Origin: Corynebacterium glutamicum ATCC 13032
GTDB lineage: Bacteria > Actinomycetota > Actinomycetes > Mycobacteriales > Mycobacteriaceae
Length of the DNA stretch: 32,000 nucleotides
Direction: 5' to 3'
Assembly: GCF_000011325.1 (NCBI RefSeq)
Contig: NC_003450.3
Location: 720,001 to 752,000, forward strand
Under the pieces are notes generated by a model. That model did not search any database. It was not told where the DNA came from and worked only from the letters and a program-made list of their open reading frames with translations. Shown in pieces: positions 6,467 through 22,384 of the stretch. Position 1 is the stretch's first letter; the number at the start of each line of letters is the position of its first letter. The translations under genes were made by a program, and so were the position numbers.

Positions 6467-6715
6467 CTAGAAGAAATTCACATTCTGAAACGCGCTGGGG
6501 TTAAACGTGTTCGGGCGAGACAGACGCTCATCCAGGTTGCCCCAGTTGTTGCGGTCCTTGCTTGCCGACACCATCTGCTGTGCAGCGGCAGCTTTAGCCA
6601 AACCAGCGAACACCACGGTCAAGGCAGCAACCTCTTGATCGGTTGGGTTGCCAGATACGATCTGCAGAAAAGGCTTCTCTGCAGCCTTGGTGTCCTGAGT
6701 GGTTTCTTCAGACAT
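6467..6715 (-). CDS. accE: Acyl-CoA carboxylase epsilon subunit
   Basis: 82-aa ORF containing LQIVSGNPTDQEVAALTVVFAGL, typical of ACC epsilon peptides. It lies directly downstream of a carboxyltransferase gene. Confidence 0.85.
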   Translation of the reverse strand: MSEETTQDTKAAEKPFLQIVSGNPTDQEVAALTVVFAGLAKAAAAQQMVSASKDRNNWGNLDERLSRPNTFNPSAFQNVNFF

Positions 6716-6738
6716 GGTTCTCCTTTAAAAAACAGTTT

Positions 6739-8352
6739 CTATAGTGGAATGTTACCGTGCTTTTTAGCAGGAACATTGACCACCTTGCGATCCAGCAGAC
6801 GCAGACCCTCAATGATCTGGCCGCGGGTCTCAGAAGGTGGGATAACGGCATCAACCAGGCCACGCTCAGCTGCGACATAAGGGTTGACCAGAGTTTCTTC
6901 GTACTCCTGCTCGTAGCCCTTCATGACCTCAGCAACGTCCTTGCCTTCGGTGGCAGCCTGCTTGAGTTCCTTACGGTAGATAAATCCAACAGCACCTGAA
7001 GCGCCCATGACGGCGATCTGTGCGGTAGGCCAAGCGAATACGAGGTCAGCGCCCATATCCTTGGAACCCATCACGCAGTACGCTCCGCCGTAGGACTTGC
7101 GGGTGATGACGGTGATCTTGCCGACGGTTGCTTCAGCGTAAGCGTAAAGCAGCTTTGCGCCGCGGCGGATGATGCCGTCGAATTCCTGGTTGGTGCCAGG
7201 CAGGAAGCCTGGAACGTCCACGAACTCAAGGATTGGGATGTTGAAGGCATCGCAGGTGCGGATGAAACGGGCAGCCTTCTCAGATGCCTTAATATCCAAG
7301 CAGCCAGCGAACTGGGTTGGCTGGTTAGCCACGATGCCAACAGAACGGCCCTCAACGCGAGCGAAGCCACACAGGATGTTCTCTGCGTAGTCTTCCTGGA
7401 TCTCGAAGAACTCGGCGTCGTCGACGATGCGGGAAATAACTTCCTTCATGTCATAAGGCTGGTTCGGGGAATCCGGGATGATGGTGTCCAATTCCAGATC
7501 CACATCGTTGATGTTTTCCTGGATGGAACCGATCATGATGTCGGCCTCCTGGCGAGGAGTTTCCGCACGGTTGTTGGATGGAAGATAAGAGGTCAGCTCG
7601 CGAACCCAATCCAAAGCATCTGAATCATCAGAAGCAGAGTAATGGGAGGTACCGGAGGTAGCCATGTGGGTGTGAGCGCCACCGAGCTCCTCCTGGGTGA
7701 CATCTTCACCGGTGACAGTCTTGATGACATCAGGGCCGGTGATAAACATCTTGGAAGTCTGATCCACCATGACGATGAAGTCAGTCAGAGCAGGGGAGTA
7801 CACGTGACCACCAGCGCAGGCACCCATGATCAAAGAGATCTGTGGGATAACGCCAGACGCCTGGGTGTTGCGGTAGAAGATCTGTGAGTACAGACCCAGA
7901 GACACAACACCTTCCTGGATACGCGCACCAGCACCCTCATTGATTCCGATCAAAGGCACACCGGTCTTGATCGCAAGATCCATAACCTTAACGATCTTTT
8001 CACCATAAACTTCACCCAAAGCGCCACCGAATACAGCGCCGTCCTGGGAGAACACACAGACCTTACGGCCATCGATGGTGCCGTAACCAGTCACAACACC
8101 GTCAGTAACTGGACGCTTGGCATCCAGGCCGAAGTTCTTGGAACGGTGACGAGCAAGAGCATCGATCTCTACGAAAGAGCCCTCATCGAGCAAATACTCG
8201 ATACGTTCGCGGGCAGTCTTCCTGCCAGCAGCGTGCACTTTTTCTACAGTTGCTTCGCCCATTGGAGCTTGAGCTTCTGCAAGACGGGAGCGAAGATCGG
8301 ACAGCTTTCCAGCCGTGGTGGTGAGGTCAGGTTTGGTCTGTGCTGCAGTCAT
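6739..8352 (-). CDS. accD2: Acyl-CoA carboxylase beta subunit (carboxyltransferase), DtsR2/AccD2
   Basis: 537-aa ORF with the full carboxyl_trans domain. It is a close paralogue of the next gene. I recognise it as DtsR2. Confidence 0.92.
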
Positions 8353-8548
8353 GGTTTCTTAGTCTAAATCCTGAAGGGTGAGAGTGAATAATGCGCTTGG
8401 TCGTGGTCGACGTACTTTGAAGGCGTTGTGCAGGGTTCTTGTGTGAACATACAAACGCCAAAATACGACCCACTTCGAGGGTTAATCCCCCTAACAAGGG
8501 ACTAATCGTTTCGCTAACCGGTTATATTAGCCCAGCGCCACCCCCCAT

Positions 8549-8617
8549 GTCTTAAAGATTGGGTGTAAAGAGTTGCCAATTTTCATTGGTATTTCTTTAC
8601 ACCCAATCATTTAAGAC
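8549..8617. repeat. Long near-perfect inverted repeat (23/24 nt arms, 22-nt spacer)
   Basis: GTCTTAAAGATTGGGTGTAAAGA (8549-8571) pairs with TCTTTACACCCAATCATTTAAGAC (8594-8617). The spacer contains the mini-palindrome CCAATtttcATTGG. Confidence 0.8.
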
Positions 8618-8621
8618 GGCC

Positions 8622-8675
8622 CTTATTGAACCCTTATTGAATTCTTATTGAATTCTTATTGAATTCTTTTGAACC
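8622..8675. repeat. 11-bp tandem repeat, about 5 copies (CTTATTGAAYY)
   Basis: The copies are CTTATTGAACC, then CTTATTGAATT three times, then a degenerate CTTTTGAACC. The array lies between the accD1 stop and the accD2 upstream region. Confidence 0.85.
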
Positions 8676-8692
8676 TTTATGGATTCGCCGAT

Positions 8693-10324
8693 TTACAGTG
8701 GCATGTTGCCGTGCTTGCGAGCAGGGCGAGTGACGTTCTTGTGCTTGAGCAGGCGAAGGTTGCGGGAAATCTGTCCGCGGGTTTCGCTTGGCAGGATCAC
8801 GGCGTCGATCAGGCCACGTTCTGCAGCGTGGTACGGGTTGAGCATGTGGTCTTCATACTCGCGCTCGAAGGACTTAGCCAGAGCTACGGTATCGAGGCCC
8901 TTGGCATCAGCTGCCATGAGCTCCTTGCGGTAGATGAATCCAACTGCGCCAGCAGCGCCCATGACGGCGATCTGTGCGGTTGGCCATGCAAGGTTGATGT
9001 CAGAGCCCAAGCCCTTGGAACCCATCACGCAGTACGCTCCGCCGTAAGCCTTACGCATGGTGACGGTGATCTTTGGAACGGTTGCTTCGCCGTATGCGTA
9101 GAGCAGCTTTGCGCCACGACGCAGAATGCCACCGTACTCCTGGCCTGCGCCTGGGAGGAAGCCGGGGACGTCGACAAGCATGACGATTGGGATGTTGAAC
9201 GCGTCGCAGGTGCGGACGAAGCGAGCTGCCTTCTCAGAGGAGTCGATGTCCAGGCAGCCAGCGAACTGGGTTGGCTGGTTGGCAACAAAGCCAACGGACT
9301 GGCCTTCGATGCGGCCGAATGCAATAACAACGTTTTCTGCGCGGTCTGCCTGGATTTCCAGGTATTCGCCATCGTCGGTGAGGCATTCGATGACATCGCG
9401 GACGTCGTAAGGAACGGTCGCGGAATCTGGGATGATCTCGTCGAGCTTCAGATCGTCAGCGGTGATGTTTTCTTCAACGCCGCCTTCTTCCTCGTCGAAG
9501 TCTTCCATCGGTGCGTAGGAGCGATTGTTGGATGGGAGGAAGGACACCAGGTCCTGTACCCAATCCAGTGCTTCCTCATCGGTCGCAGCGGTGTAGTGGG
9601 AGTTACCAGCGGTCACCATGTGGGTGGTTGCTCCGCCAAGCTCTTCCTGGGTGATTTCCTCGCCGGTGACGGTCTTGATCACGTCTGGGCCGGTAACGAA
9701 CATCTTGGAGGTCTTGTCCACCATGACCACGAAGTCGGTCAGAGCTGGGCCGTAAGCGTTGCCACCTGCACATGCGCCCATGATGACGGAGATCTGTGGG
9801 ATAACGCCAGAAGCCTGAATGTTTTGGTAGAAGGTCTGGGAAATGAAGTCCAGGGAGACAGCGCCGTCCTGAATACGAGCGCCAGCGCCTTCGTAAAGAC
9901 CGATCAATGGGCGGCCGGTGTCGATTGCCAGCTCCATGATCTTGATCATCTTTTCGCCGTACACCTCACCAAGCGCGCCACCGAATACGGTGCCGTCCTG
10001 CGAGAAGATGCAGACTTCGCGTCCATCAATGGTGCCCCAGCCGGTCACGATGCCGTCGGTTGCAGGACGCTTAGCGCCCAGGCCGAAAGCGGTGGTGCGG
10101 TGGCGAGCCAGCTGATCGGTCTCGATGAAGGAGCCCTCATCGAGTAAGTAATCCAAGCGCTCACGGGCAGTGAGGCGTCCAGCAGCGTGGACCTTCTCTA
10201 CTGCCTTTTCACCCATGGGGAAATGGGCTTCCGCGCGGCGAGCCTTAAGGTCGGCGATCTTGCCGGCAGTGGTGTTGATGTCTGGAAGGTTGGCGACGTC
10301 AATCAAAGGTGAGGAAATGGTCAT
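8693..10324 (-). CDS. accD1: Acetyl/propionyl-CoA carboxylase beta subunit (carboxyltransferase), DtsR1/AccD1
   Basis: 543-aa ORF beginning [30 protein letters not shown], recognised as DtsR1. It has the complete carboxyl_trans domain. Confidence 0.95.
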
Positions 10325-17207: not shown

Positions 17208-17263
17208 CCTAGTTAAACAAGTGACCGGGCTGAATAAGCAACCTGGTTAAACAAGTGACCGCG
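17196..17263. repeat. 17-bp tandem repeat, 4 units (core TTAAACAAGTGACC; unit 3 degenerate)
   Basis: Units start at 17196, 17213, 17230 and 17247. Three cores are identical 14-mers. Unit 3 is CTGAATAAGCAACC. Confidence 0.88.
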
Positions 17264-18529
17264 CAGCGTGGTGTGACTGTATTCTGTGCGGAATCGGCCA
17301 CGTCGCTGCAGTTCAGGGACTACTAAGTCAACAAAGTCGTCCAAACTGTGGGGGAGCATCGGTGGCATGAGGTTGAAGCCATCGGCACCGCCCTCGTCGA
17401 TCCAGCGCTCGATTTCATCAGCGATGCTTTCCGGAGTGCCGATAAATGTGGCGTGCCCACCGCCTGCTGCGAGGTAGCCCAAAAGTTCGCGGACGGTTGG
17501 TGATTTAGATTCGATGATCCGCAGGACCGTTTCGTACCTGCCTTTAGGACCGGAAAACTCTTCTAGCGGTGGCAGTGGTGGGGGAGGTGCATCCAAATCC
17601 CACGTCGAGCAATCTTGACCCACAAAGAAACTCAACTGATTTAGTGAGTCTTTGACCGGCAGCAACGCATTAAGAGCCTGCTGTTTTGCACGCGCTTCTT
17701 CCACGGTCGTGCCAACAAAAGTCACCAAACCAGGAAGCACCGGCATGGGCTCGCGACCCTGGGCAGTGGCACGAGCATGAATATCAGAGCGATAATCTTG
17801 CGCTTGCTCCAAATCCCACGCCACAGAGTAAATTGCCTCGGCGTATTTCGCAGCGATTTCCCGTCCTTGCGGTGAGGATCCAGCCTGAAAAAGTACGGGT
17901 CGACCCTGCGGAGGACTGGGGATATTCAGCGGACCAGCGACTTGGAAGAACTCACCATCATGATCGATAGATTTAATGAGCGAGGAGTCCGCAAATTTTC
18001 CAGCACGATCCATCACCAAACTTTCCGCAGGCCAAGAATCCCACAGCGCAGTGATGGTTTCAATAAATTCCGCAGCGCGCGCATAGCGAACATCGTGACC
18101 CGGCAACGCATCCATCCCGTGGTTACGCGCCTCCGCATCGGTCATCGATGTCACCACATTGATTCCAGCACGCCCACCCGAAATATGATCCAAGCTGGCG
18201 ATCATCCGCGCCGCATGAAACGGCTGCCAAAACGTACTGGAAATTGTGCTGATCAACCCAATATTGTTCGTCGCCCGCGCCATCGCAGTCAACGCGGTCA
18301 CCGGCTCCAAAAACCAGCCCGGCCCATTCTCCAGACCGACCGGATTAATCGCCTGCCCATCGGCCAAAAAGACCGCATCCAGCTTGCCCCGCTCAGCGGT
18401 GCGCGCGAGTTCCTCCCACCAGGAAATTAAACCCAGCTTTTCGACGCTTCCCTCCACCGCTCGCCACGCCGCCGCGTGGTGCCCGGCACCGAAAGCAAAA
18501 AGGTTGAGGTGTATTTCTTTCGGTGTCAT
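17213..18529 (-). CDS. ntaA: FMN-dependent LLM-class monooxygenase, NtaA/SnaA/DszA family
   Basis: 438 aa counted from ATG 18529 (MTPKEIHLNLFAFGAGHH...). The track's longer version (to 18622) reads into the IS end. The symbol is recalled from the C. glutamicum annotation; the true substrate is unknown. Confidence 0.88.
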   Translation of the reverse strand: MTPKEIHLNLFAFGAGHHAAAWRAVEGSVEKLGLISWWEELARTAERGKLDAVFLADGQAINPVGLENGPGWFLEPVTALTAMARATNNIGLISTISSTFWQPFHAARMIASLDHISGGRAGINVVTSMTDAEARNHGMDALPGHDVRYARAAEFIETITALWDSWPAESLVMDRAGKFADSSLIKSIDHDGEFFQVAGPLNIPSPPQGRPVLFQAGSSPQGREIAAKYAEAIYSVAWDLEQAQDYRSDIHARATAQGREPMPVLPGLVTFVGTTVEEARAKQQALNALLPVKDSLNQLSFFVGQDCSTWDLDAPPPPLPPLEEFSGPKGRYETVLRIIESKSPTVRELLGYLAAGGGHATFIGTPESIADEIERWIDEGGADGFNLMPPMLPHSLDDFVDLVVPELQRRGRFRTEYSHTTLRGHLFNQVAYSARSLV

Positions 18530-18531
18530 TA

Positions 18532-18545
18532 GTTGAAAACCAGTC
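18532..18545. repeat. Target-site duplication, left copy (GTTGAAAACCAGTC)
   Basis: Identical 14-mer at 20264-20277, directly abutting the TGT...ACA ends of the IS. Confidence 0.85.
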
Positions 18546-18669
18546 TGTAAAGTGTCAGCACGTTGTGCACACCCAATGTCATATCCTTGTGCACGCCCTA
18601 TCCCACTAGGTTGTGCACACACAAAGCCACAGCAGTGTGCACACCAACCCAGCCCCTCGGGACAAGTTT

Positions 18670-20115
18670 CTAGCGCAGAAGATCCCCCGGATCTATCGAC
18701 TTGAATCGCTTCTCAGCCTCATCACGTTTGCGTTGCCACAACGGTGTCGGGTGTTGCATCCACACCCCACGAATGTTGTAAGAATTGATATACGACTTAC
18801 CCCGGGCAATCGCCACAACCGGCAACGGAATCGACAACTCAAGCTCCCCGGTTATCGCATCCCAGAAACCAAGCTCAGTTGCCGTCACCGTCCGATAAAA
18901 CTCCCTGTCCCTCATCGTACGAGGAACAGAAATACGCATCCCCTGGAACACCACCTTCTGATTATTCCCAGCAAACGTAAACACATCAGGATCCACCGGC
19001 TTTTTACCAAAACGACGTACCCGTCGACGTTGCTCGGTCTGCTGCATCTTAGACACCGGAACAGATTCCTCCTGCCGAACAAGCGGGACATCTGATTGCT
19101 TCTCAATTCGACGACGGGCATAGTGATCGGCTTGCTGTTGAAGCACGACGGGATCAATCGGGGGTTGTTGTTCCACACAGCCCACAATCTCCCAGGCCGC
19201 GGCCGGGGTGAGATTATTCGGCAACCCCTGATGCGGGCGACGATTGTTGTAATGATCGCGGAACTGTTCAATATAGTGCGCACATTCCTCAAGTGTGTGT
19301 GGTTGATGAGCTTGAAGGAAACGAAATAGTGTGCGGTGGCTGCGTTCGTTTTTACCTTGGGTTTGAGGATGCCCAGGCTTGCCGGTAATGCTTAAACACC
19401 CCACCGTCGCGAGATAGCTTTCCAAGCTTCCGACGTATCCTTGCCGCATCCGGTTAAACGCTGAGCCGTTATCACTGAGTAATTCATGCGGGGCACCGAA
19501 ATGAGCAATCGCTTGTTCTAGCGCTGTTCGGGCATCGACTGAGTTTTCATTCGCGGGGAAGACACAGGTTCCGACATCAAACCGAGTGGCATCATCAAGG
19601 ATTTGATAGATCGTTACCCGAGTCAGATCAGTATCGTGCAGTGTGTAGATGAAACCATCTATTTGCCACATTTCCATGGCTTGACCTCGTTGAAACCTCA
19701 CCACCGACGACTTCGGTCGCTTCTTAGGGTTACTTTCAACAGCTCCTGCGGCGCGTAACAAACGAGCAATGGTTGAAACAGATGGAATCGGTGCAGTCAG
19801 TTCCCCGGTGGAGATGCCTTCGAATCGAATAGAGATCGGGCCGTACTCCCATCCTTGGGCTTTCAGGCGTGCGCGGATGGACAGCAAGGTGCTGGTGATG
19901 GATTCATCGTACGTTCGCCGGGCGGTGATTGGGGCGCTGGAGTGTGGATGCAGTGCTGCGTTGGCGTCTTGTTGGTATCGGTTGCGGATGTTGTAGAAGC
20001 TGCGCCGCGATATTTTTAGCCGACTGCAGAACTCTTCGATCGAGGGGCTGTTCGGTGCGAACGGATCGAAATCGATGATCTTGCGTCGGGTTTCTGGGGG
20101 TAGGGGTTTAGGCAT
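18670..20115 (-). CDS. DDE transposase (N-terminal HTH, rve integrase core, extended C-terminal domain)
   Basis: The core region is WQIDGF...LDDATRF...LSDNGSAF...GHPQTQGKNERSHRTL...YNNRRPHQGL. I prefer ATG 20115 (MPKPLPPETRRK, 481 aa). The track start at 20172 lies inside the terminal repeats. Confidence 0.88.
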   Translation of the reverse strand: MPKPLPPETRRKIIDFDPFAPNSPSIEEFCSRLKISRRSFYNIRNRYQQDANAALHPHSSAPITARRTYDESITSTLLSIRARLKAQGWEYGPISIRFEGISTGELTAPIPSVSTIARLLRAAGAVESNPKKRPKSSVVRFQRGQAMEMWQIDGFIYTLHDTDLTRVTIYQILDDATRFDVGTCVFPANENSVDARTALEQAIAHFGAPHELLSDNGSAFNRMRQGYVGSLESYLATVGCLSITGKPGHPQTQGKNERSHRTLFRFLQAHQPHTLEECAHYIEQFRDHYNNRRPHQGLPNNLTPAAAWEIVGCVEQQPPIDPVVLQQQADHYARRRIEKQSDVPLVRQEESVPVSKMQQTEQRRRVRRFGKKPVDPDVFTFAGNNQKVVFQGMRISVPRTMRDREFYRTVTATELGFWDAITGELELSIPLPVVAIARGKSYINSYNIRGVWMQHPTPLWQRKRDEAEKRFKSIDPGDLLR

Positions 20116-20164
20116 GATGTCAATTGTGAGCAGCCTAGGACTATGCCTGTGGTGTAGGTCTGGG

Positions 20165-20263
20165 GTGTGCACAAGGTCATGACACTATGCATGCACAAGG
20201 TCATGGCATTAAGTGTGCATAAGGTCATGACACTGAGTGTGCACAACCCTCTGACACAAAACA
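20165..20263. repeat. Subterminal array of 24-bp direct repeats at the IS right end (3 copies plus the terminal IR)
   Basis: The units are GTGTGCACAAGGTCATGACACTAT, GCATGCACAAGGTCATGGCATTAA, GTGTGCATAAGGTCATGACACTGA and GTGTGCACAACCCTCTGACACAAAACA. Confidence 0.85.
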
Positions 20264-21016
20264 GTTGAAAACCAGTCCTCCGTCGACGACCAAGTTTTGG
20301 CCTGTAACCGCGCGCGACCAGGGGGATGCGAAGAAGAGGGAGGCGTCGGCAAGCTCTTGGGGAGTGGTGACGGACCCCAGTGGGGTGCCGGCGGCGATGA
20401 AATCAAAGACTTCCTCGGGCGTGGCGGCGCTGGCGCCGGTGGTGCGCAGCAGGCCGCCGCTGACCATGTTGACCGTGATGTGGCGTGGGCCCAAATCCTT
20501 GGCAAACGTGCGAGTCAAGGACAGCAGCGCAGCCTTCGCAGCGGTGTAATCGTGGTAGGGGACAGTCGGATTCTGGAAAAGATTCGTGCCGATGTTAATC
20601 ACACGACCACTTCCCACCTCCTCAAAACCAGGCAAAGCCTCCTGGATGGTGTTCAGCGCGCCCTCGATTGCGCTGGTGTACTGCTGATTAAAACGCTCAA
20701 TGGTGATGTCCTCCGCCTTGGGACGCGCATCGCCATCAAAGCTGAAATCCGCCAAAGCGCTGTTGACCACAGTGGTGATCGGGCTGCCGAAATGTTCCTT
20801 GGCCTGCGCAAACATGCTTTTCACCTGTTCGCGATCACGAACATCAGCCTGAATCGCCACCGCCTTTTCACCAGCCAGCTCTGCGGCAGCATCAGCCGAA
20901 CGGTGATAGTTCACCACAACACGAGCACCCTCGCGCAAAAATGATTCAGACAACGCGCGACCAAGTCCGCGTGCACCGCCGGTGACCAAAACAATTTGCT
21001 CAGAAATATCAAGCAT
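20225..21016 (-). CDS. Short-chain dehydrogenase/reductase (FabG-like); the last 12 codons and the stop are supplied by the IS end
   Basis: 263-aa ORF with the TGGARGLG cofactor motif and the YHDYTAAKAA catalytic motif. The codons for CFVSEGCAHSVS* (20261-20225) lie inside the IS. Confidence 0.88.
   Translation of the reverse strand: MLDISEQIVLVTGGARGLGRALSESFLREGARVVVNYHRSADAAAELAGEKAVAIQADVRDREQVKSMFAQAKEHFGSPITTVVNSALADFSFDGDARPKAEDITIERFNQQYTSAIEGALNTIQEALPGFEEVGSGRVINIGTNLFQNPTVPYHDYTAAKAALLSLTRTFAKDLGPRHITVNMVSGGLLRTTGASAATPEEVFDFIAAGTPLGSVTTPQELADASLFFASPWSRAVTGQNLVVDGGLVFNCFVSEGCAHSVS
20264..20277. repeat. Target-site duplication, right copy (GTTGAAAACCAGTC)
   Basis: Identical to 18532-18545. 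Confidence 0.85.
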
Positions 21017-21177
21017 GAAAAAACGCCCTTCTTGGGTTGGGGCGAAGGGCAGAGGGACCTATCCCTTGGGAGGATGGGTCCAATGCGACAGTCCCTTCGC
21101 CAGTACTAACTGGATCAGGTTCGACGGGTGTAATCTCAGCGAAAGCTTTTTTAAAGTGCTTTTGCACCCCGTGTCAC
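21017..21177 (-). promoter_or_regulatory. TPP (THI-box) riboswitch with a terminator-type expression platform
   Basis: The minus-strand aptamer spans 21177-21085 and contains the blocks GGGGUGC, CUGAGA, ACCCGU and GAACCUGAUCCAGUUAGUACUGGCGAAGGGA, with P1 formed by GUGACA/UGUCGC. The terminator GCCCUUC-12 nt-GAAGGGC plus U6 spans 21050-21018. It ends 1 nt before the SDR ATG. Confidence 0.88.
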
Positions 21178-21396
21178 TAGTAGCCGAGGGTATCAGTTTG
21201 TGAGCGCGTGTGGGGCGAGTTGGTACAGAAGAGCAATTCAGGCCGACACCACAAACTCCGATCTAACAAAGATTTGCGCTGCCAACTATGGCAGTTTTGG
21301 ATCCTAGATACCATGCTTGTAAAAGTACTGCAAATGGATACTGGACTGTCGTAACGGTATACCATAGAAACAATCTGTAATCCTCTAAGGAGCGCG

Positions 21397-21768
21397 ATGA
21401 AAGATTCGTCTAAGTTTGCGACAAAAAATTATTCTGCTCGACTGTTCTTATTGCTTTATGTCTTAACGGTCGTAGTCGGGTGGATATTTGCCCTTGGGAA
21501 TCCCTATTCAGTAGTAACCGCTTTTTCAATTTTTGTTGGAGTTGGTTTTGCTGTAGCTGCAGTTGCTTGTGCCCTAACAAGAAGAGCTCCCTTGTGGCTT
21601 TTGGGGTTCTTAGGTGGTGTAGGAATCGTTCTTGTCTTGATGGGAATCTATTTCAGGGTAACTCAGCCTGATGGAATCCTAACTGGATATTTGATACCGA
21701 TTGGTTTTGGATTTTTTCTCGCAGAAGCAGCTGTGGCAATAGAGCGTTATTGGCATCGTCGTCACTAA
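21397..21768 (+). CDS. Small integral membrane protein (about 4 TM), AT-rich
   Basis: 123-aa hydrophobic ORF with an ATG start preceded by AAGGAG. No family was recognised. Confidence 0.65.
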   Translation: MKDSSKFATKNYSARLFLLLYVLTVVVGWIFALGNPYSVVTAFSIFVGVGFAVAAVACALTRRAPLWLLGFLGGVGIVLVLMGIYFRVTQPDGILTGYLIPIGFGFFLAEAAVAIERYWHRRH

Positions 21769-21814: not shown

Positions 21815-22384
21815 TTAAGCCCCTTTAATCGTCTCCAGGGTGATCTCGGTGAATTGTCCAACCTCGCGGACATTTACGGTGCGGAGACGATTACTTTCGA
21901 TCCGGCGGGGCATCGCTGGCTGCCCTTCATCGAGAAACACTGGCGCCATGGTCAAGATGATCCGATCGAGTGCACCCGCATCAAAGAATTGACCCGCCAG
22001 ATCGCCACCACCGACGATCCAAATATCAGTGTTCTCTGGACTCTCTTCCAGTATGGCGGGGAGAACATCGGCGACATCTCCATTTACTACCTTGACAGGT
22101 TTTCCTTCCGGGGTTTCCAAGTTCCTGCTGCTGAACACCCACGTGGGGCGATCGCCATACACATCGGTCCACTTGTGGGGATCGCTGATGAAATCTAGGT
22201 CCTTGAGCAGCCATTCATAGGTGGTGGATCCCATTACGATGGTGCCGGCTTTTGAAAGGAAATTACCGAAGTCTTCAGAGGCACCGTCGCTGCCGGGGAC
22301 GTCGAAAAGCCATTGCAGGGAGTTGTCTTTGTCTGCGATGAAGCCGTTGAGCGTGCTCGATGTGTTGTAGATGATCGCCATCAC
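21815..22384 (-). CDS. Dihydrofolate reductase-like protein (RibD C-terminal domain family)
   Basis: 189-aa ORF with the pattern STLNGFIA...MGSTTYEW...WIVGGGDLAGQF, typical of the RibD_C family. Confidence 0.85.
   Translation of the reverse strand: MMAIIYNTSSTLNGFIADKDNSLQWLFDVPGSDGASEDFGNFLSKAGTIVMGSTTYEWLLKDLDFISDPHKWTDVYGDRPTWVFSSRNLETPEGKPVKVVNGDVADVLPAILEESPENTDIWIVGGGDLAGQFFDAGALDRIILTMAPVFLDEGQPAMPRRIESNRLRTVNVREVGQFTEITLETIKGA

Follow-up and report, generated by a model that had tools for sequence, protein, structure and literature searches.

The locus upstream of oarX (cg0825) in Corynebacterium glutamicum ATCC 13032 is best explained as a whole, and with high probability, by a known TPP riboswitch in the 162-nt 5' untranslated region (5'UTR) of oarX, which would act as a switch hiding the Shine-Dalgarno (SD) sequence in an operon that was split by the insertion sequence ISCg5a. 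Riboswitch, transcript and the pair oarX-fmnO have all been published before, and the window, i.e., the whole stretch of 32,000 nucleotides analyzed here, brings no new association. Coordinates below are those of the window and published genome coordinates were converted by subtracting 721,473.

Identity and structure of the aptamer

21074 to 21181, minus strand: TPP riboswitch aptamer (THI element), from the RF00059 covariance match and the minimum-free-energy fold.

An earlier sequence-only reading of this DNA had identified a TPP riboswitch on the minus strand and had named an Rfam scan as the way to check it. The whole 32-kb window was scanned against all 4227 Rfam families, and the sole match was RF00059 (TPP riboswitch) at 21181-21074 on the minus strand with 67.3 bits, above the gathering score of 54.3 (E = 2.4e-11), the alignment covering the full model from position 1 to 105. 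The minus strand, read over 20900-21300, carries GGGGUGC, CUGAGA, ACCCGU and GAACCUGAUCCAGUUAGUACUGGCGAAGGGA in canonical order, each at the place where the sequence-only reading had put it. The ligand-contacting blocks CUGAGA and ACCUGAUC...GCG.AGGGA are all present in the leader. Helix P1, described before as GUGACA/UGUCGC, was found at 21177-21172 and 21090-21085 with six pairs, one of them G-U, and the minimum-free-energy fold of the leader recovers P1, P2 and P4/P5. Judged from its sequence, the leader element is a genuine TPP riboswitch that agrees with RF00059 in every point that can be tested, and it presumably responds to TPP.

Promoter, transcript and earlier descriptions

21187 to 21192, minus strand: -10 hexamer TACCCT of the oarX (cg0825) promoter, from the published table of transcription start sites (TSS), with identical flanking sequence.

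The riboswitch is placed within the transcribed 5' leader of the oarX mRNA by a mapped TSS and by an identical UTR sequence. The TSS of oarX at genome position 742651 corresponds to 21178 in the window, and the stretch 21178-21017 is identical, letter for letter, to the published 162-nt 5'UTR of cg0825, which was observed by RNA-seq at 742,651-742,490 (Pfeifer-Sancar 2013, PMC3890552). Table 2 of the same work lists the TPP riboswitch of C. glutamicum ATCC 13032 at 742,654-742,547 on the minus strand, and its supplement calls the ribosome-binding site (RBS) of cg0825 as AGGGC with a spacing of 8 (Pfeifer-Sancar 2013, PMC3890552). The cg0825 riboswitch was also validated in a further study (Mentz 2013, PMC4046766). 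Recently, a dedicated study of the oarX-fmnO riboswitch operon of C. glutamicum was published, in which repression is asserted with reference to an sRNA-seq survey (Oliveira-Filho, Rodionov and Hanson 2024, PMC11223231). According to this paper, the position of oarX behind a TPP riboswitch 'has long been known', the credit going to Rodionov et al. 2002; on the strength of that passage, the THI-regulated oxidoreductase mentioned in the sequence-only reading is oarX. That reading had moreover considered the controlled genes to lie outside the known thiamine sets. This holds as far as the role of the two enzymes is concerned, but the pair is already recognized as a member of the TPP regulon and as a candidate salvage system (PMC11223231).

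The genes oarX and fmnO

20225 to 21016, minus strand: oarX (cg0825), short-chain reductase (SDR), from the NF006393 match; the native 251 codons end at 20264.
17213 to 18529, minus strand: fmnO (cg0823, 'ntaA'), FMN-dependent monooxygenase of 438 aa, from the TIGR03860 match.

OarX matches NCBIfam NF006393/PRK08642 with 445.5 bits at an equivalog cut-off of 292; FabG models reach about 154 bits, which is under their cut-offs. The protein is 97% identical to a 251-aa protein of C. suranareeae. A search of the PDB with OarX gave no close solved relative, the best match having 118.6 bits and offering no substrate clue. FmnO matches TIGR03860 (NtaA/DmoA family) over its full length with 506 bits (cut-off 279.7). 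This model begins at residue 39 of the longer fmnO open reading frame (ORF), and the true start is the ATG at 18529 (published ATG 740002), giving the 438 aa. The best PDB matches of FmnO are 3sdo, 1yw1, 5tlc and 6ak1 with E-values from 1e-85 to 1e-67, and structures of NtaA, YtnJ and DszA are matched at E about 1e-85 to 1e-83. Neither OarX nor FmnO is closely related to a solved structure with a known substrate. FmnO was reported to branch off in a clade apart, its identity to characterized members being no more than about 45% (PMC11223231).

Upstream of the riboswitch promoter, a gene with a RibD_C domain (dihydrofolate-reductase-like) is encoded on the minus strand (21815-22384), and the small divergent ORF cg0826 on the plus strand (21397-21768) has no family match. 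No link of either gene to the riboswitch is evident.

Distribution of the riboswitch and the gene pair across oarX loci

For comparison, 80 oarX loci (L001-L080) were taken from a collection with one genome per species by means of an alignment of OarX homologues, C. glutamicum itself not being among the matches listed; all counts given for them hold among the matches listed. Their products are 65-76% identical to OarX and they belong to Actinobacteria and to Alpha-, Beta- and Gammaproteobacteria. In these loci oarX lies at about 7001-7760 and fmnO at about 7760-9050.

The sequence-only reading had suggested profiling the co-occurrence of the pair with THI elements, and the profile obtained is a clear one. 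Among the matches listed, a TPP riboswitch is present directly upstream of oarX on the same strand in 64 of the 80 loci, fmnO follows immediately downstream in 52 of the 80 (FmnO identity 59-70%), and all 52 oarX-fmnO pairs have the riboswitch. Twelve further loci among the matches listed show riboswitch and oarX without fmnO, two of them (L060 and L074) being cut by contig ends, and the remaining 16 of the 80 show neither riboswitch nor fmnO. The upstream riboswitch was found by a regular-expression motif scan in 63 loci, and Rfam added L031, which the expression had missed; altogether Rfam confirmed the upstream riboswitch in 11 of 11 loci tested, i.e., ten found by the expression and L031. 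For the 16 loci lacking an upstream motif, the Rfam scan covered about 14.7 kb and was negative for TPP elements throughout. Distant minus-strand matches of the THI-core expression in Stenotrophomonas and Luteimonas loci were unconfirmed by Rfam and are false positives. Thiamine control is lost or was never acquired in the lineages of these 16 loci (L011, L036, L038, L043, L048, L051, L055, L061-L063, L069, L070, L072, L073, L077, L079), whose OarX homologues (66-71% identity) have no TPP riboswitch within 7 kb and are encoded in Stenotrophomonas, Luteimonas, other Lysobacteraceae, Pandoraea, a Burkholderiaceae MAG, a Polyangiaceae MAG and an Actinomycetota MAG.

A second, divergent TPP riboswitch was found in 18 loci among the matches listed. 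Of 16 genes scanned under this divergent riboswitch, 13 encode SSF sodium:solute symporters (ThiV-like) and two are thiM. In Marinobacter and several other proteobacterial loci (L008, L009, L010, L016, L018, L021, L022, L024, L028, L031, L042, L053, L078) the two TPP riboswitches stand back to back within about 250 nt (about 6650-6930), one driving oarX-fmnO and the other the divergent sodium:solute symporter (ThiV-like). The listed loci have no conserved gene 3' of fmnO, so the operon ends there, and a dedicated flavin reductase is likewise missing as a constant neighbor of fmnO.

According to its annotation as '3-oxoacyl-ACP reductase' by NCBIfam and most sources, the SDR could be a FabG paralogue of lipid metabolism with a THI element upstream by coincidence. 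The chance of this is close to negligible: the riboswitch is kept in 64 of the 80 orthologous loci among the matches listed and in three bacterial classes, the neighbors of oarX include thiV-like transporters, thiM and thiG, the SDR lacks a close solved structure, its best PDB match having only the 118.6 bits mentioned above, and OarX is about 30% identical to FabG and falls into a separate clade (PMC11223231). The comparison agrees with what was published before and makes it somewhat sharper.

For both OarX (65-76%) and FmnO (59-70%), the similarity of actinobacterial proteins to those of Alpha-, Beta- and Gammaproteobacteria is unusually high, and the riboswitch travels along. The riboswitch-oarX-fmnO cassette looks horizontally mobile. 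In single loci further elements were seen, namely a Guanidine-II riboswitch in Luteimonas huabeiensis (L061, 3921-3965) and an array of tRNA genes that immediately precedes the riboswitch-oarX unit in Halomonas icarae (L049, 1178-6556).

Expression platform and proposed mechanism of switching

21018 to 21051, minus strand: sequestor/terminator hairpin (21051-21044 / 21031-21024) followed by U6, from folding and the published RBS.
21041 to 21049, minus strand: anti-aptamer (anti-sequestor or antiterminator) segment CCCUUCGCC, complementary to 21101-21093 of the aptamer.
21055 to 21081, minus strand: linker hairpin from the aptamer to the expression platform, predicted in the OFF and in the forced ON folds.

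The arms of the platform hairpin are GCCCUUC (21050-21044) and GAAGGGC (21031-21025); including a closing U-G pair it has eight pairs, a 12-nt loop and a predicted energy of -12.7 kcal/mol. The sequence-only reading had described this hairpin with its U6 and both are present, although its stem coordinates were one base off. It had let the U tract end 1 nt before the start codon, in agreement with U6 at 21023-21018, C at 21017 and AUG at 21016, and had assigned the SD to the right arm, where GAAGGG (21031-21026) is indeed located within the 3' arm of the hairpin, in line with the published RBS AGGGC. The alternative pairing it proposed is likewise exact: GGCGAAGGG (21101-21093) and CCCUUCGCC (21049-21041) are 9-nt complements with a duplex of -17.0 kcal/mol.

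In the folding calculations the OFF fold, with aptamer and hairpin, is the minimum-free-energy structure of the full leader at -55.6 kcal/mol, and the forced ON fold has -52.2 kcal/mol, a cost of 3.4 kcal/mol. In a transcript that stops short of the hairpin's 3' arm, the alternative (ON) helix forms spontaneously. The linker hairpin at 21055-21081 is modeled to bring both competing segments close together; it is the only part in which the leader differs from that of C. suranareeae. By these models the two-state OFF architecture of the leader is real, and we infer the ligand response and the relative weight of translational versus transcriptional control. If TPP is scarce, the aptamer 3' strand GGCGAAGGG would pair with CCCUUCGCC, the SD GAAGGG would be free and oarX would be expressed. 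With TPP bound, the aptamer would keep its own strand, CCCUUC would pair with GAAGGG and the ribosome-binding site would be hidden. Ribosomes must be shut out in the OFF state, since the SD makes up the hairpin's 3' arm. Since U6 follows the hairpin in C. glutamicum, some premature termination in addition is plausible.

The leaders of the other oarX loci were compared for the same features. Among the matches listed, 33 of the 64 oarX leaders retain a segment exactly complementary to the aptamer strand over 7 nt or more, which is CCTTCGCC in 24 of them. A start codon was usable in 52 leaders, and in 39 of these, pairing in the platform fold takes up 60% or more of the SD window; in 28 of the 37 leaders carrying an anti-aptamer segment of at least 6 nt the pairing partner of the SD overlaps this segment, again among the matches listed. 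The mean paired fraction of the SD, 0.66 against 0.56 in shuffled sequences (Wilcoxon p = 7e-5), is only modestly above the shuffled controls.

It could be argued that the switch is essentially of the terminator/antiterminator type, TPP causing RNA polymerase to stop at U6 and translation control being incidental, which we consider possible, although rather unlikely. Such a stop would be in keeping with the G+C-rich hairpin of eight pairs and the U6 directly after it, with the 100% conservation of both in C. suranareeae and with the antiterminator helix that forms in the folded truncated transcript; moreover, transcription running on into cg0824 is recorded as an operon. However, a loop of 12 nt exceeds what is usual in intrinsic terminators, and only 1 nt separates the U tract from the AUG, so that the same helix necessarily hides the SD. 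A terminator scan of the leader reported no hairpin, because it accepts only loops of 3-8 nt. A 3' end at U6 (21018-21023) was sought in published sRNA-seq, and the recorded end is at 742,535, corresponding to 21062 and not to the U tract, which may reflect read length. Compared to the 80 loci among the matches listed, a U run after the hairpin is found in the window only, the close relative C. suranareeae sharing the U6, and in those inspected of the other loci with a U run (e.g., L018) it is placed inside the hairpin loop; the logic of the SD hairpin, in contrast, is widespread. It is concluded that SD sequestration is the conserved mechanism of oarX leaders, and it is plausible that transcription termination is an addition specific to the C. 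glutamicum group. What the sequence-only reading had called a textbook terminator is upheld in part, as a two-state OFF design with hairpin and U6, but it is SD sequestration that is conserved instead, the U tract being confined to the window and C. suranareeae.

Insertion of ISCg5a into the operon

18546 to 20262, minus strand: ISCg5a, 1717 bp, with imperfect terminal inverted repeats of the TGT...ACA type, from inverted and direct repeats.
20172 to 18670, minus strand: transposase ORF of ISCg5a, from rve/rve_3 integrase domains.
20263 to 20277, minus strand: target-site duplication, copy 1 (GACTGGTTTTCAACT), exact 15-nt direct repeat.
18531 to 18545, minus strand: target-site duplication, copy 2, exact 15-nt direct repeat.

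The insertion is located exactly at the overlap of the oarX stop with the fmnO start. Removing ISCg5a and one copy of the repeat restores ...GGLVFN-TAATG-TPKEIHLNLF..., i.e., an oarX stop codon overlapping the fmnO start codon. The IS-free comparator, the locus of C. suranareeae retrieved via protein look-up, has a TGATG overlap and aligns collinearly with the reconstructed window for 2.35 kb (88% identity). This reconstruction of the junction, together with the profile matches, agrees with the claim of the sequence-only reading that the switch controls a FabG-like SDR and, prior to the insertion, also controlled an NtaA/DszA-type FMN monooxygenase; by the overlap, the two were translationally coupled. 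As a consequence of the insertion site, OarX has 263 aa compared to the native 251, the last 12 codons and the stop (20263-20225) being encoded by the IS.

The element at this locus was named tnp5a ISCg5a (cg0824) in the supplement of an earlier study (Mentz 2013, PMC4046766). ISCg5 was reported to transpose. The best NCBIfam match of the transposase is IS481, with 198 bits below the cut-off of 224, and inverted repeats and the 15-bp duplication are present; because of the score below the cut-off, the element is labeled 'IS481-like', an assignment from sequence. Each end of ISCg5a (20165-20270 and 18543-18645) contains three to five subterminal repeats 24 nt apart with the palindrome TGTGCACA, which presumably are multiple transposase-binding sites.

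The published operon tables combine cg0824-cg0825 to one operon transcribed from the cg0825 TSS, and give cg0823 as a monocistronic gene whose TSS, at 740,043, corresponds to 18570 and thus lies inside the end of the IS (Pfeifer-Sancar 2013 supplement, PMC3890552). The -10 element of fmnO, TATGAC, is contained in the right end of ISCg5a. The riboswitch transcript accordingly runs into the transposase gene, and fmnO is transcribed from an outward promoter in the IS end. From the operon tables and the fmnO TSS inside the IS it follows that the riboswitch may no longer govern fmnO in the ATCC 13032-type strain. Through the IS, thiamine control may have been extended to the mRNA of the ISCg5a transposase and lost for fmnO. 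No comment on this natural rewiring was found in the published work on the locus, and the 2024 study, performed in strain ATCC 14067, makes no mention of an insertion or a transposase (PMC11223231).

Going further, one might regard the riboswitch of the ATCC 13032-type strain as a relic that has no regulatory role after disruption by the IS, given the altered C-terminus of OarX, the removal of fmnO from the riboswitch transcript and the lack of a phenotype of an oarX-fmnO knockout in another strain (PMC11223231). This is very improbable. The IS-free relative has the very same aptamer and platform, the score is well above threshold, the riboswitch promoter is active and the UTR is transcribed, and the IS lies 750 bp downstream and leaves the leader untouched. 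For practical purposes, the split operon in ATCC 13032-type genomes means that the system should be studied in an IS-free strain or that it can be used as a natural uncoupling experiment.

Possible function of OarX and FmnO

The ancestral switch would have governed a two-gene operon, oarX-fmnO, encoding a thiamine-linked pair. By their families, OarX would be an NAD(P)H-type short-chain reductase and FmnO an FMNH2-dependent monooxygenase of the NtaA/DszA type. The characterized enzymes related to FmnO act by hydroxylation of a carbon adjacent to N or S, thereby releasing an aldehyde. By analogy to NtaA, EmoA, DmoA and DszA, it can be speculated that FmnO hydroxylates a carbon next to N or S of a thiamine-derived compound, and, equally speculatively, that OarX would reduce the resulting aldehyde to a usable alcohol, HMP or HET.

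In the 2024 study, five oxidized thiamine products were excluded as substrates, namely PCA, MTA, oxo-HET, oxo-thiamin and thiamin acetic acid, and aldehyde-level intermediates are absent from these five compounds (PMC11223231). The sequence-only reading had pointed to an uncharacterized thiamine-linked activity, for example salvage; the first part of this still applies to the pair, but salvage of the five oxidized products is already excluded (PMC11223231). Deletion of oarX-fmnO as one unit in ATCC 14067 gave no phenotype (PMC11223231), so that the thiamine-linked function rests on genomic association. Taken jointly, the aldehyde chemistry of FmnO followed by OarX and the rewiring by the IS of thiamine control over transposase and fmnO are a reading to which we would assign a small chance. 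A literature search for later work resolving OarX returned the 2024 paper alone (PMC11223231). The function of OarX and FmnO constitutes a question of about 20 years in thiamine salvage and repair that is already framed in the literature.

Comparison with known systems

The cg0825 leader resembles the E. coli thiM-type TPP riboswitch in that the aptamer 3' strand competes with an anti-SD segment and ligand binding would hide the SD, a principle that oarX leaders have conserved; it differs in that its hairpin also has U6 and the look of a terminator, and in that the mechanism is predicted here from sequence. In termination-type TPP riboswitches of Firmicutes, a hairpin is followed by a U tract and the antiterminator shares a strand with the aptamer. 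Both features are found again in the cg0825 leader, whereas here the U tract lies right next to the start codon, the loop spans 12 nt and orthologous leaders do not share the terminator feature.

FmnO is similar to the two-component FMNH2 monooxygenases NtaA, DszA, DmoA and YtnJ (TIGR03860), to which it is linked by the full-length match of 506 bits, but it forms a clade of its own (PMC11223231) and lacks a conserved adjacent flavin reductase. The inserted element corresponds to the IS481-like ISCg5 of C. glutamicum by its rve-type DDE transposase, its TGT...ACA ends and the tnp5a annotation at this position, while measured against the IS481 model of NCBIfam its transposase stays at 198 bits with a cut-off of 224. 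The closest system is the published TPP riboswitch-oarX-fmnO operon of C. glutamicum (PMC11223231), with which the window shares the locus, an identical leader, the gene pair and the genomic association; the differences are that strain ATCC 14067 was used there and that in the window the operon is split by ISCg5a.
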